This document shows positions 9,001 through 14,239 of a stretch of 30,805 bases of DNA, in pieces. Made by a program: the position numbers. Source of the DNA: a virus; UHGV virus genome UHGV-0077717; one strand, given 5' to 3'. Position 1 is the first letter of the stretch; each line of letters opens with the position of its first letter.

Positions 9001-12000
9001 CTCCATAAGTTGAAAGATAATCATCCATTTGCTGGTTAAACTTTTCGCCTTCAGTATTTGCCATCAGTTTTGAGGTGTTGATTAAGTCTTGGACTTGCTC
9101 ATTATTCAGCATCTTGCCGTTAGATAATTGGCTAACATAGTTACCAAGTGTGCCAAATATTCCATCAGTGCGTTTTACCTGCACTTGCTCACCTTCGCGT
9201 ACCACAGATTGCGGATCCAGCGATTTCATATAGTTGAAAATCATTCCCAACTGCGCGGCTGGAGTGTTGCGCTTCCCAAGGGCTTGTAGGTTGTCAGAAG
9301 CACTGCGCATTGCAGAATAATTCTTTGAGAACCCATTAATATCACTATTCAGATCTCGAACAAGTTTTGGGTCAATCTTTCCGCTTTCCTGTTGTTTCAT
9401 CCCTAATTCCTGCAACTTCAGGGCTACGTTATCATTATGCATTTGTGCCCGCTGAGCCCTGTCTAGTTGAGCGTTTTGGATATTTGCCCATCCTCTCGCG
9501 TTCTCCATGTCAGCCTGACGGATGCTTTCATCCAATCGCCCTTTCTCAAGTTGGCGACCAACCATCTTATCCTGATAATCCAGCATTTTATCCGGACCAA
9601 CAGCCCCTAGCGTCATAGTAGTCAGCATGTGTGATAGCTGCTCTGGATTCTGGATACCTGTCTGAATCATCCAGTCAGCATTAGCACCAACGCGATTTAA
9701 CCTGTCCTTGTTGTCAGTAATGAATTTACTGTAGGCTTCCGGTCCCTGAGAAAGAGCGACGTTAGCCCTCATGGCTAAATCGCCCATATCGTTGCGTTGC
9801 TGCTCATTAAGACCGGAAAACGCCTGTTGTGCCTGTGCAACAAACGCTGGATTTTCCCGGGCAAACTTAAATAGTCCCGATGGATCACCAGAAGCCCATG
9901 CATCAGCGTGAACCTTATTGAACGCACTAATCGCTTTCTGTTGCTGTTCCTGATTGTAAATATCAGCAACTCCAGCCAGACCACGTAACGCGGTCAGGCC
10001 AACGTTATTTGCACCTGAGCGAGCCAGTTCATTGTTTTCGCGGATCAGACCAAGCGTTGCGTTAATGTCGCTTGCCTTTGGCGCATTCTCATTTTGCGTA
10101 CCGATGCCAGCCAGAAAACCACCAGAATTAATACCCTGTTGCCACGTAGCCATTGATTACCCCTTAATAAAGCAGTGAACTAAGCAGACCGATACCAGCA
10201 CCGATACCAGCACCCCACGGAGTTGATGAACCAATTAATTTCGCAAGTCCAGCCCCAGCAATAGCACCAGACGCACCCCCGCCAATAGCAGATTGCATTG
10301 CTGATGGTCTGTTGGCATTTGCCGCTGCAAGAGCCGCACTTTGCTGCGAAATCTGACTCATGTTGTTGGCATATGTCTGCCCGGCGTTTGCCTGACCTTG
10401 CAGTGCGCCAAGACCAATATTTGCCAGATTCTGGTAGTTGTTCATCTGACCAGATAGCCATTGCTGACCAAGCGTTGGTGCGATTGTTGCTAACTGATTA
10501 CTGGTTGCGGTGGAACCTAATCCACCTGTTGCTTCCGCTGCCGCCAGACTCTGATAGCGAGCCTGACCAGCAAGATCTTTGTACTGCTGAGAGTTGTAAT
10601 ACTGGTTAAGTGCCTGACCTTGCCCTTCCAGAGACGATAAGTTCTCAAGGCTGCCGACATACTTCCCAGCCAGAGGAGTAAACGGCTTCAGGTTGTTCAT
10701 GATGGTGTTGAACTGCTGATTTTGCAGGTCTGCGGCATACTTCTGAGTTTCTGCGGCATACTTTGCACTTTTATCAGAACTGCCACCTTTCCCGCCTTTT
10801 TCAGGGCAATAAGGTTCCTCGCCGCGCAGTTTTCTGCCCAGCTTAAATGCATATAACATGGCTATCTCCCGTGATTCAGGAAGTCGATTAGTTCTTCGCG
10901 TGTAGCACTGTAAAACGTCACGTCATCCACGCCTTTGAAGTATTTCTTGATGGTTCCTACACGCTTAAGGCCAATCATTGCGCAGTACATCTGACCGTGG
11001 CGGAATTTGCGTGCAGCGAACGATGTTACGCACTGAACGGTGGTGTTAGTCAGAATGTATCGCCAGAACGCCAGCCCGATTTCCTTGCTGAATCCACGAA
11101 CCTCTGGCAGGTACATGGCGTGGCAATCGAATGTAAGCGGCTGAATCTCCTGATAGTAAACAATGCCGCCAAACTGCCCGTGCACGTTCACCTCAAAGTA
11201 ACGGCAATCAGGTTTGTAGTCGTATCCATCACCGTTGTTGCTCCCGGCGATAATGTCAGGGTGATTTCCGACTGCTTCGATCAGGTCGATGTTTCGCGTT
11301 AGTTTGAACTGAATCATCACTGCTCCGCGATTATCTTGATGGTTGTGGCAGTAAACGCCGCACCATTTGACTGGATGGTTAACGTACTGCCATTTGTGGC
11401 AAGAAATCCGTCTTTATCCACGCTGAAGAACGTAGCTAACAGGATGTTATCGGTCGTTGTCGCCGAGTTGCGACTGCTTACCAGCGTGTCAGGAACAGAG
11501 CCGGAAAAGGTTAGCTGCATTGACCTGTTGGCGGTTCCGCTGGGCCACGTCCCGACGATCGACAGCTTGAAGAACAAGGTTTTGTTCTCGTTGAACACAA
11601 CCATCTTGTTGTTAACGGTGTCGAAGAATGGTGCCAACGAGCCGGATGACGGCGTGAGCGTTTTCAGCAGGCTAACAAGGTTGGTAGGCGCTGTCGGAAT
11701 TGTTACCGATACCCCTGAGTAAACAACCTCTGATTTCTTGCGCGTGGTGGCATACTCAAGCGCAGATATTCTTGTTGAGTGATCACCAACTGTGCTTTGT
11801 AGCGTCGAAATACTTCCCTCTGCCGCTGTGAGCCTGGTATCAAGTGCGTCGATATCGGTTGTATTCTGAGTTATGCGCGCATCATGAGTTGCTAACTCAG
11901 ATTCATTGGCAGCAATTCGCGTCTCGTGATCAGCCAGCTCTGTTTCGGCAGCCGTAATCCTTGTTTCATGATCTGCAAGAGTGCTTTCCGCTGCTGCAAT

Positions 12001-14239
12001 TCTATGTTCATGATTGATGAGAGTTGCTTCAGCAGCTTCAATTCTGGATTCATGGTCTGCAAGGGTGACATCCTGCTCATCGTTCCTGACCTGTGCATCA
12101 TAAGCGCCCTGTCCGGCCTCGTTGGCTTTGTTAGCCACGTTACCAACATCAGTGCCCTGTGCGATAACGTAAAGCAGATACGACTGCGAGAAGATATTGC
12201 GTGGAAGAACTGATGTATCGAGCCGCGTAGCCTGGACGATTACCGGCACATTGAGATTCGAATCAGCCATTACTCAATCCTTATCTGAGCGCCAGACAGA
12301 GTGACAGGTGACTTCGTGATAACGCGCAATTTGAAACCGACATTTTTCCTGATGCGCCCTACTTTCTTCCACAAAACGCGCTTGTCGTAAACGAACGGTT
12401 CATTCTGCTCAATCATCTGCTCACGCCCGTAATTTATGCCGTCAGTGGTTGCAGACAGAAACAGGCGGTCAGCGTACTGCGCAACACCCGTCGATGATTC
12501 CACCTCCAGATCAAAGCATCTGGCGTTATCCGCTTTGAACAGTGGAGTAAACAGCAGGTGTTCCTGTTGAAGCCCATACTGACTGCTGATATCGAACTGC
12601 AATTTCCCGGTCACCGATTCCAGCTTATCGCCGCACGTTATCTGATTGCCTTCGTAAATGAAGTCGATAGCGCGGTACACATCGTCATACAGGCCTGTTT
12701 TCAACACACACCATTGCGGACCATTGGCGCTTGAAGATGCGTCGTACACGAGGACGTGGCGCGGAAGGTGGATAATCAGCAGTTCATGCGCATCAAATCG
12801 CAGCGATTCCATCACACCATCAGCCAGTTCATCAGCAGTGTAGGAGCGGAGGATTTTCTCAATGCTCGCGCTGGCGATTGGTGATACCTGACCGGAACCA
12901 ATGATGTACACAGACGGCGCACCCGTTGCCGGATTGCTGATGAAAGCATACGAATCAGCAAACGGCGTTTTGCAGTAAGTCCCGGCAATGCCTTTCTGCA
13001 CCATCAGCGATGGTTGTGCAACATACAAAGCGGCACCAACGGTGGTTGCACCAGTCAGGGAGAAATATTCAATCGTCGATGAACCAAAGCAGACGATGAA
13101 GTCTCGCCATGCGCCGATACCGATGATGCCGTCCGGCTGCGATTCTGCGCGATATTGTGCGCTGTAGCGGTCAGGATGCGATTCGTCTTCAAGGTCAGTG
13201 ATAAACCATGAATCAGTTCCGTCTTTTGACCACGCATAACGCCCACGTAAGCGCGTAATGTCGCGAACTGAACCTAACTCATACTGAGTGAATCCACTGT
13301 CTGTAGGCCAGTTTGAGACGGTTTTAACCGTACCATCATAGCGATACTCGACCAGTTGACCATTAACGCCTACCGCCTGTGATGTCCGACCATGCGCCAT
13401 TGATACGCGACCACTTCCGGCAACATCACCGACTTCGCTTTCGCCTTTGTAGAGCTTGCCGCCACACACACGATAGACAGCATTCTGCGCCATGTTGTAC
13501 TCGACGCCTCGAGATGCACCGTTCACATCAGAGCGTTTTGCAATGCCCGGGAATGAGCGAAGATATCCGCTGCTGTTGAGTATTTCTTTGGGCGTAGCCA
13601 GCATATTCACTGGCAGATAGTCGATATAGTCCGCGTTTCGAAAGTCTTTGCCGACACCTTTCATAAGCGGAAGTTGCTGAATCGGCATTATTCGCTCCCG
13701 TTATCGCAAGGTTCCTTTCGCTGGAAGTAATTCCAACCGTTCCACTTCGCCAACTGATTACCGCTACCAACAGGCATACGGTTTGGATAACCGGACTTAC
13801 ATTTAGCGGCTTTTGCTCTGTCCATTGCAGACAGTTTGACGAGTCGCTCTTTCCCGTATCTGGCAGTGGTTATAAGTTTTGCTGACGCTTCCAGCGCATA
13901 ATCCGGAGCAATGCGGCAGGCAAGGTTGAAAATGACGGCATTGATAGCGTTATTTGATAAACCGTGCTCATCGCCCGGATCCGGAGCGACATCTGCATCA
14001 GCAAAAATGTAGCCAACGTTGATACCAGGTGACGCATCACCGCCAAGCCATTCAGCCATCATCATTTCAAGGTCGTTGACGCCGTCTTCCATGGACTGAG
14101 GTTCGACATCGGTTAACGTGGCATTTGATGCCACACCGAGCTTACGTAATGCCGCAAGAACTAAATCACCCTTCGTTGTCAGGTTCATCTGCTGCCGCCT
14201 TAGGTTTTCGACCAGGCTTTTTACGCTGTTTTTCTTCTG

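Follow-up and report, generated by a model that had tools for sequence, protein, structure and literature searches.

The window analysed here, 30,805 nucleotides of the viral genome UHGV-0077717, holds on its minus strand (11317..12270) a tail needle gene of the HS1/Sf6 type, consisting of 317 codons and a TGA stop, which the ORF list, the translation and a direct read of the sequence all give as intact and full length. The gene is tightly packed between its neighbours: its ATG shares one base with the TAA stop (as TAATG) of the upstream gp10 homologue, a tail hub protein of 472 aa (12270..13688, minus strand; PF11134, E 1e-297), whilst its TGA runs into the GTG/ATG start codon of the downstream gp14 homologue, a DUF2824 protein of 152 aa (10862..11320, minus strand; PF11039, E 5e-54). 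Matches to P22_gp7 and Inj_translocase follow PF11039 downstream of the needle in the Pfam search, and the gene order of the window is that of P22, namely gp4, gp10, needle, gp14, gp7, gp20 and gp16; the gp10-needle-gp14 order is shared by HS1 and 17 further loci. The N-terminal 150 residues of the product match the needle structures of P22 gp26 and HK620 (E 1e-42 to 1e-44), which, along with the position between the gp10 and gp14 homologues, bears out the gp26-like needle that an earlier note had called at this locus. Its length was also given correctly there, as 317 aa against the 233 aa of P22 gp26 (ORF translation; 2POH chain length).

Many E. coli genomes keep only a remnant of this gene, with O157:H7 genomes matching just query bases 507-954 (the knob half), and more than 100 such remnants are described in PMC3741392. 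In principle, then, the gene could have lost its function and survive as a relic of a defective prophage, comparable to the P22 remnants of E. coli O157:H7. Such a history is very unlikely here, given that the ORF is full length with start and stop overlapping its neighbours, that the surrounding P22 virion-assembly and ejection genes are all intact and in order, that the window also encodes coat, scaffold, portal, terminase, tailspike, integrase, lysis, Q and replication genes, and that the functional residues of the needle are all conserved.

With a probability of about 97%, the gene encodes the tail needle of an E. coli prophage that is P22-like (Lederbergvirus-type); the needle belongs to the Sf6/HS1 subtype and is essentially the published HS1 needle. 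The latter, from the E. coli HS prophage (EcHS_A0316 / WP_000785558.1, L001:35116-36066, ‘tail needle knob protein’), also has 317 aa, 311 of which (98%) are identical to those of the window protein in an ungapped alignment, leaving six substitutions only (V12I, D100E, A107D, T128N, T138A and S211T). The two share the 16 heptads, the 14-residue units, the knob, the glutamate and phosphate residues and the position between gp10 and gp14, yet their surroundings are mosaic, with different tailspikes (815 aa in HS1 against 636 aa in the window) and with terminase, portal and coat genes that differ in type. The protein in the window is thus a near-copy of a needle with a knob solved by crystallography at 1.1 Å (PDB 4K6B) and a function already probed by genetics. 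Coliphages Gally, JEP4 and vB_EcoP-720R6 likewise have needles that are 97-98% identical to the protein in the window. Nothing was found that contradicts the identification of the gene as a needle, and the biology of such needles is already known; there is nothing new in the gene, the knob or the repeat.

More distant relatives share the general plan of the protein and part from it in the shaft or the tip. Sf6 gp9 (282 aa; knob PDB 3RWN) has the same layout of plug, trimeric coiled coil and TNF-like knob, and its plug and knob are near-identical to those in the window, whereas its shaft is more diverged in sequence and 35 residues (five heptads) shorter, having 11 heptads instead of 16 (PMC3741392); the difference appears in the alignment as one gap of 28 residues and another of 7. 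P22 gp26 (233 aa; 2POH, 3C9I) and the HK620 needle (5BU5) share with the window needle its gene position, its plug function, a homologous plug and a homologous heptad shaft, in which both the LADHExRI units and the NxxQD Ca2+ motif recur. The P22-type tip, however, is replaced in the window needle by an unrelated knob.

The virion-binding or plug domain occupies residues 1-62 (12085..12270, minus strand), as delimited by alignment to the HK620 and P22 needles: the HK620 needle (5BU5) aligns over the full span of residues 1-79 (domain E 1.5e-39), and residues 3-64 match P22 gp26 in 8EAP (E 3.3e-27). This domain is nearly invariant among the relatives compared. According to the cryo-EM of Sf6, into whose virion map the needle was modelled, the N-terminal domain of the needle plugs the channel of the gp10 tail hub (PMC9728967). 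By analogy, the N-terminal 60 or so residues of the protein studied here would form a helical hairpin inserted in the hexameric gp10 hub, plugging the DNA channel after packaging.

The shaft follows at residues 63-174 (11749..12084, minus strand), where the heptad phase table gives 16 continuous canonical heptads, the number also described for the shaft of the HS1 needle (PMC3741392; Leavitt 2013). It opens with the polar-core motif NxxQD (N63, Q66 and D67), known to bind Ca2+ in P22 gp26 (PMC13580157), and then shows L or I every seventh residue through 16 turns of the register, with L and I alternating at position a, and H and A alternating at position d, unless this is N. Hydrophobicity peaks at a period of 7.03, with a power of 96.6 at period 7. 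In the AlphaFold2 monomer, residues 42-179 make an unbroken helix, and block-mean pLDDT stays at 94-98 across residues 71-160.

Superimposed on the heptads is a tandem repeat of five 14-residue (42-bp) units at residues 68-137 (11860..12069, minus strand), each being two canonical heptads of the form L-A-D-H-E-x-R / I-x-A-A-E-x-x. The first four units (residues 68-123) are strong, with 8-11 of their 14 residues identical in pairwise comparisons, the fifth (residues 124-137) is weaker (4-7/14), and a sixth, degenerate unit at residues 138-151 (11818..11859, minus strand) is identical to the others at only 3-6 of 14 residues, after which the heptad register goes on without sequence repetition. 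Tandem Repeats Finder (TRF) locates the repeat at 11944..12067 with a period of 42. Over residues 63-179, the self-identity of the protein is 0.417 at an offset of 14 and 0.416 at an offset of 28, values that none of 5000 shuffles reached at either offset (shuffle maxima 0.20 and 0.24, respectively), and at the DNA level the identity at offset 42 is 0.489, a value likewise reached by none of 2000 codon shuffles.

The earlier note had read this region as a coiled coil of 11-residue repeats, with at least four copies of about 33 bp. The repetition of ADHExRIxAAE is real, and so is the count of four, to which a weaker and a degenerate unit are now added, but each unit measures 14 residues or 42 bp. 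The motif does read as 11 residues by eye; these are the conserved core of the 14-residue unit, and what was missed are the three variable joining residues x-T/E-L. A truly non-canonical 11-residue (hendecad) shaft, which would be supercoiled differently from that of P22 gp26, is refuted by the analysis of periodicity. Self-identity of the protein over residues 63-179 is only 0.094 at an offset of 11, which is the chance level (reached by 2756 of the 5000 shuffles), and 0.060 at an offset of 33, whilst the DNA has an identity of 0.299 at offset 33, reached by 854 of the 2000 codon shuffles; offsets 14 and 28, on the contrary, exceed every shuffle. Hydrophobicity power drops to 7.2 at period 11 and to 7.5 at 3.67, a small fraction of that at 7, the L/I spacing is seven throughout the 16 turns, the TRF period is 42, and the length variants among the relatives listed always differ by multiples of 7, never 11. 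The hendecad repeat is rejected on offset identity, shuffles and periodogram alike, and its probability is practically nil. Since the repeat is a canonical double heptad and not a hendecad, there is nothing unusual to infer on the supercoiling of the shaft. In the trimer, residues ~63-174 of the three chains would run parallel in a coiled coil with 16 canonical heptads, and 14-residue repeats with L/I at a and H/A/N at d make up the first ten to twelve of these heptads. The earlier note is partly supported, having called the gene and the knob correctly and mis-measured the period of the repeat. The correction from hendecad to double heptad is useful for annotation; as it stands, the finding as a whole is of little importance.

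The remainder of the protein, residues 180-317 (11320..11733, minus strand), is a knob, a domain that in its solved homologues is a TNF-like beta jelly-roll. Ser, Thr and Asn make up 35.5% of these 138 residues, in line with the Ser/Thr/Asn-rich extension noticed earlier, and its suspected knob nature is confirmed by PF16532, the ‘Sf6-type phage tail needle knob’ (E 1.3e-107; the score is 357 bits where 27 is the cutoff), and by the nearly residue-for-residue match of residues 165-317 to PDB 4K6B (E 4e-90) and 3RWN (E 3e-89). Chains of these two structures are also the top six Foldseek matches of the model knob (E about 3e-18). A P22-type tip (gp26 residues ~141-233), on the other hand, is rejected: no match to it was found over residues 180-317, and when phmmer aligns the protein with 2POH, 3C9I and 4ZKP, the alignments end at residues 149-151 (at 150 in the case of 2POH), so the C-terminal region does not align with P22 gp26. 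The residues of the predicted L-glutamate site (E181, K235, S283, D285, L290 and K312, in HS1 numbering) and of the predicted phosphate triad (S266-R267-N268) are present, and, judging by sequence, all 11 positions checked against the list in PMC3741392 bear the published residue.

The needle is probably a homotrimer, as 4K6B and 3RWN have three chains each and the literature describes such needles in this way; at the distal tip, residues 180-317 of the three chains would then make up a TNF-like jelly-roll trimer, with three L-glutamates possibly bound between the subunits, at their interfaces, and one phosphate on the three-fold axis. The AlphaFold2 monomer is of moderate quality overall (mean pLDDT 74) and is poor at residues 1-41 and in some knob loops, as expected when an obligate trimer is modelled as a single chain. 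It confirms the long helix, gives a mediocre knob and adds nothing to the solved structures.

From what is known of P22, Sf6 and HS1, we infer that on infection the needle may be the first part of the virion placed to reach the outer membrane, and that it would have to vacate the channel before the DNA and the ejection proteins, homologues of gp7, gp20 and gp16 whose genes lie just downstream, could leave. Contact of the knob with the cell envelope during ejection, which the earlier note had also raised, is already addressed by published experiments. In published chimeras, it is the speed of DNA delivery that the knob tunes, and not host specificity (PMC3741392). The chimeras weigh against the idea that the knob is a receptor-binding domain fixing host range, as a second determinant beside the tailspike. 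Its position at the distal tip, the resemblance of its TNF-like fold to the fibre knobs of adenovirus and PRD1 (PMC3741392), the distant Foldseek matches to members of the C1q/TNF family and its occurrence mostly in phages of Escherichia and Shigella (PMC3741392) would all suit such a role. Even so, P22 chimeras with the HS1 knob, or with the shaft and knob of Sf6, infect Salmonella normally, K+ release kinetics alone being changed when P22 carries the HS1 knob (PMC3741392). Besides, identical needle alleles occur with differing tailspikes (the 303-aa allele with tailspikes of 663, 665 and 805 aa, and the 289-aa allele with tailspikes of 655 and 748 aa), and knob sequences are almost invariant among phages from differently typed hosts. 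A host-range function of the knob is thus very improbable.

What does vary among relatives is the length of the shaft. In the series obtained from 120 listed relatives out of about 2500 homologues, the knob is constant at 137 residues and so is the N-terminal domain, whilst the spacing from plug to knob follows 54+7k residues, giving proteins of 254-345 aa with about 7-20 heptads. That repeat number sets needle length, as suggested before, holds for these relatives, in which repeat or heptad count varies and shaft length changes with it. In 2013, a narrower range of 11-16 heptads had been described (PMC3741392). The indels behind it are clean: the 345-aa allele has an 84-bp tandem duplication (TRF 2.5 copies, 93% matches), whose inserted copy aligns without a mismatch to the copy beside it, the 338-aa allele has 3.3 copies with 98% matches (TRF), and exactly 42 bp are missing from the 303-aa allele. 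Shaft length evolves as blocks of 42 or 84 bp are gained or lost in frame between the similar repeat units.

It is tempting to speculate that the two-heptad array is a built-in length tuner, where recurrent in-frame slippage or recombination of 42 or 84 bp yields shafts of about 7-20 heptads whose lengths are selected, and not simply neutral, for some property of the host envelope (O-antigen or capsule depth) or for the timing of DNA release; we regard this as doubtful. A needle length matched to tailspike length is rejected as far as a small and non-independent sample permits: in the 11 distinct intact length pairs that the window, HS1, Sf6 and 17 further loci provide, the two lengths are uncoupled (Spearman rho 0.09, p = 0.78), and the shortest (254 aa) and longest (345 aa) needles are both paired with tailspikes of 724 aa. 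Given this uncoupling in so small a sample, any selection on needle length would have to act through something else. If the series were adaptive, it would offer a simple natural series on needle reach versus genome delivery in short-tailed phages. As it stands, the heptad-quantised series of knob-type needles, from 254 to 345 aa via clean 42- and 84-bp indels, is a small descriptive addition. So is the wider spread of knob-type needles among host records, which now include Klebsiella, Serratia and Salmonella salamae, outside the Escherichia/Shigella range noted in 2013.

The ORF list also contains two plus-strand ORFs antisense to the needle gene and inside it, at 11336..11722 and 11926..12213. 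These are treated here as by-products of the coding strand, because the minus-strand ORF fully explains the conservation and the indels of the relatives all keep the minus-strand frame.

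In its sequence, the intact needle gene of the window (11317..12270, minus strand, 317 codons) is a near-identical copy of a gene already known, whose product is published and structurally characterised. The protein annotated as 'tail needle knob protein' in HS1, a prophage of E. coli HS, also has 317 residues, 311 of which are identical to the window's without a gap, and the needles of phages Gally, JEP4 and vB_EcoP-720R6 are 97–98% identical to it. In the HS1 needle, Leavitt et al. 2013 (PMC3741392) distinguished a virion-binding domain at the N-terminus, a 16-heptad coiled coil (Sf6 and P22 have 11 heptads) and a TNF-like knob, whose 1.1 Å structure shows three bound L-glutamates and a phosphate at the tip. 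Every HS1 residue named in that work (E181, K235, S283, D285, L290, K312 and S266-R267-N268) is present here under the same numbering. The gene was matched in 899 of 5426 complete E. coli genomes, at least 80% of it being covered in 164 of them.

The earlier note had called this gene a tail needle with a knob at its extended C-terminus, and had proposed comparing it with P22- and Sf6-type needles; the identity with HS1, the structural matches and the neighbouring genes bear out both calls. Residues 136-317 match the Pfam family 'Sf6-type phage tail needle knob' (PF16532, E 1.3e-107), and residues 165-317 match, almost residue for residue, the knobs of HS1 (4K6B, E 4e-90) and Sf6 gp9 (3RWN, E 3e-89), which are also the first Foldseek matches of the beta domain that an AlphaFold2 monomer model places after the helix. 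The P22 gp26 and HK620 needle structures are matched by residues 1-150 (E 1e-42 to 1e-44), and because these alignments end at about residue 150, a P22-type tip can be ruled out. Many E. coli O157:H7 genomes match only the knob half of the gene (bases 507-954), beside a DUF2824 gene (e.g., NZ_CP016625.1 3461783..3462230, H58), which fits the 'several-gene P22 remnant' reported from more than 100 E. coli genomes (PMC3741392).

The surroundings of the gene point the same way. Its ATG shares one base with the stop of an upstream 472-aa gene (TAATG) and its TGA overlaps the start of a downstream 152-aa gene. Homologues of P22 gp4 and gp10 (Pfam P22_Tail-4, Phage_stabilise) lie upstream and those of gp14, gp7 and gp20 (DUF2824, P22_gp7, Inj_translocase) downstream, whilst the window also holds gp16, an immI/ant region, tailspike, integrase, coat, scaffold, portal, terminase, lysis genes, Q, NinB and a primase-helicase. 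Judged by gene content, the needle gene belongs to a P22-like prophage's late operon, in which it occupies the gene-26 position.

As for the shaft, the earlier note was right about a tandem motif and wrong about its period, which is 14 residues (42 bp) and not 11 (33 bp). The four copies within residues 68-123 are strong, the next one (124-137) is weaker and the sixth (138-151) is degenerate. Tandem Repeats Finder gives a period of 42 in the DNA. Over residues 63-179, protein self-identity is 0.417 at offset 14 and 0.416 at offset 28, neither being reached in 5000 shuffles, against 0.094 at offset 11, reached by 2756 of the 5000; in the DNA it is 0.489 at offset 42 (0/2000 codon shuffles as high) and 0.299 at offset 33 (854/2000). 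The periodogram of hydrophobicity has its peak at 7.03 and little power at 11 or 3.67, and from N63 to A174 the heptads keep one register without interruption, as L-A-D-H-E-x-R / I-x-A-A-E-x-x, position a alternating between L and I and position d between H and A (further on, N and L). Each repeat unit thus comprises two canonical heptads. An NxxQD motif (N63, Q66, D67) provides an independent anchor for this register: the corresponding N, Q and D, at a, d and e, coordinate Ca2+ in P22 gp26 (PMC13580157). The AlphaFold2 model predicts a single helix without a break from residue 42 to residue 179 (block-mean pLDDT 94-98 over residues 71-160). Since the units share only 22-31 of their 42 bases, the window's array is old and maintained at the protein level.

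All but one of the shaft's histidines (H73, H87, H101, H115, H129 and H164 within residues 63-174, window 11749..12084) fall on heptad position d, as do N122 and N136, forming a ladder of polar core layers; the first five are invariant in 16 homologues 75-98% identical. In P22 gp26, asparagine at d and the NxxQD ion site have been described (PMC13580157); among the papers searched, none reported histidine layers in tail needles.

That repeat number sets needle length, as the earlier note had suggested, is visible in nature from the sequences of relatives. In the best 120 of these the N-terminal domain is constant and the knob always measures 137 residues from its EVVYSG anchor, whilst the spacing from DEQDV to the knob takes the values 54, 68, 82, 89, 96, 103, 110, 117, 131, 138 and 145 (i.e., 54+7k), apart from a few singletons at 85, 98, 109 and 116. 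The proteins are 254-345 aa long, or some 7-20 heptads taking HS1 as 16, and the variants written out differ by whole two- or four-heptad blocks between ADHExRI units. A 303-aa allele has exactly 42 bp fewer than the window; a 345-aa allele carries a tandem 84-bp duplication (Tandem Repeats Finder: 2.5 copies at 93% matches), its inserted copy being identical, as aligned, to the neighbouring one, and a 338-aa allele a different 84-bp block (3.3 copies at 98% matches). Knob-type needles, reported in 2013 only from Escherichia and Shigella phages (PMC3741392), also occur in Klebsiella aerogenes and Serratia marcescens records (317 aa, 75-77% identical to the window's) and in a Salmonella enterica subsp. 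salamae record (254 aa; together P0066, P0068, P0073, P0078 and P0109). These occurrences and the heptad-quantised length series are each a modest descriptive update to the 2013 picture.

How such a needle would work is inferred from the literature on P22 and Sf6, the features tested here being sequence-level only. Three chains would form one fibre, whose N-terminal hairpins would close the hexameric gp10 hub as a quasi-six-fold plug (PMC9728967); the heptad shaft would reach out past the tailspikes and end in the knob, and the needle would seal the packaged DNA and have to exit the channel at infection. In chimeras the HS1 knob slows K+ release without setting host specificity (PMC3741392). 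A needle whose reach must suit the tailspikes should vary in length together with them; there is no sign of this in a small and non-independent sample of 11 distinct intact length pairs, taken from the window, HS1, Sf6 and the neighbourhoods of needles with six other lengths (Spearman rho 0.09, p = 0.78). Spikes of 724 aa accompany both 254-aa and 345-aa needles, and one 303-aa allele occurs with spikes of 663, 665 and 805 aa.

Other genes deserve mention. The longest gp4 ORF (13688..14287, minus strand) includes an SQ run in its N-terminal part near 14240..14287; its P22_Tail-4 match starts only at residue 35 and gp4 has 153-166 aa in relatives, so the true start probably lies downstream, in which case the run would be an out-of-frame reading of the hexanucleotide repeat in the adjacent small orf69-like gene. 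The first 210 or so residues of the gp16-type ejection protein (6690..8825, minus strand, 711 aa) match the transglycosylase family phrog_29864, and in related loci, where gp16 mostly has 602-707 aa, a 797-aa version bears a Pfam SLT domain; both matches argue that in some P22-like phages a lytic transglycosylase is fused to the ejection protein. Two related prophages have homing-endonuclease-like insertions in their late operons: in one, a NUMOD4/HNH_3 gene between gp4 and gp10 (L003 8051..8635), and in the other an HNH_3 gene that separates scaffold from coat and runs on the opposite strand (L013 5843..6358); the latter prophage also carries a ClpP-family protease gene (PF00574, L013 16348..16884) between gp16 and arc in its immI/moron region.
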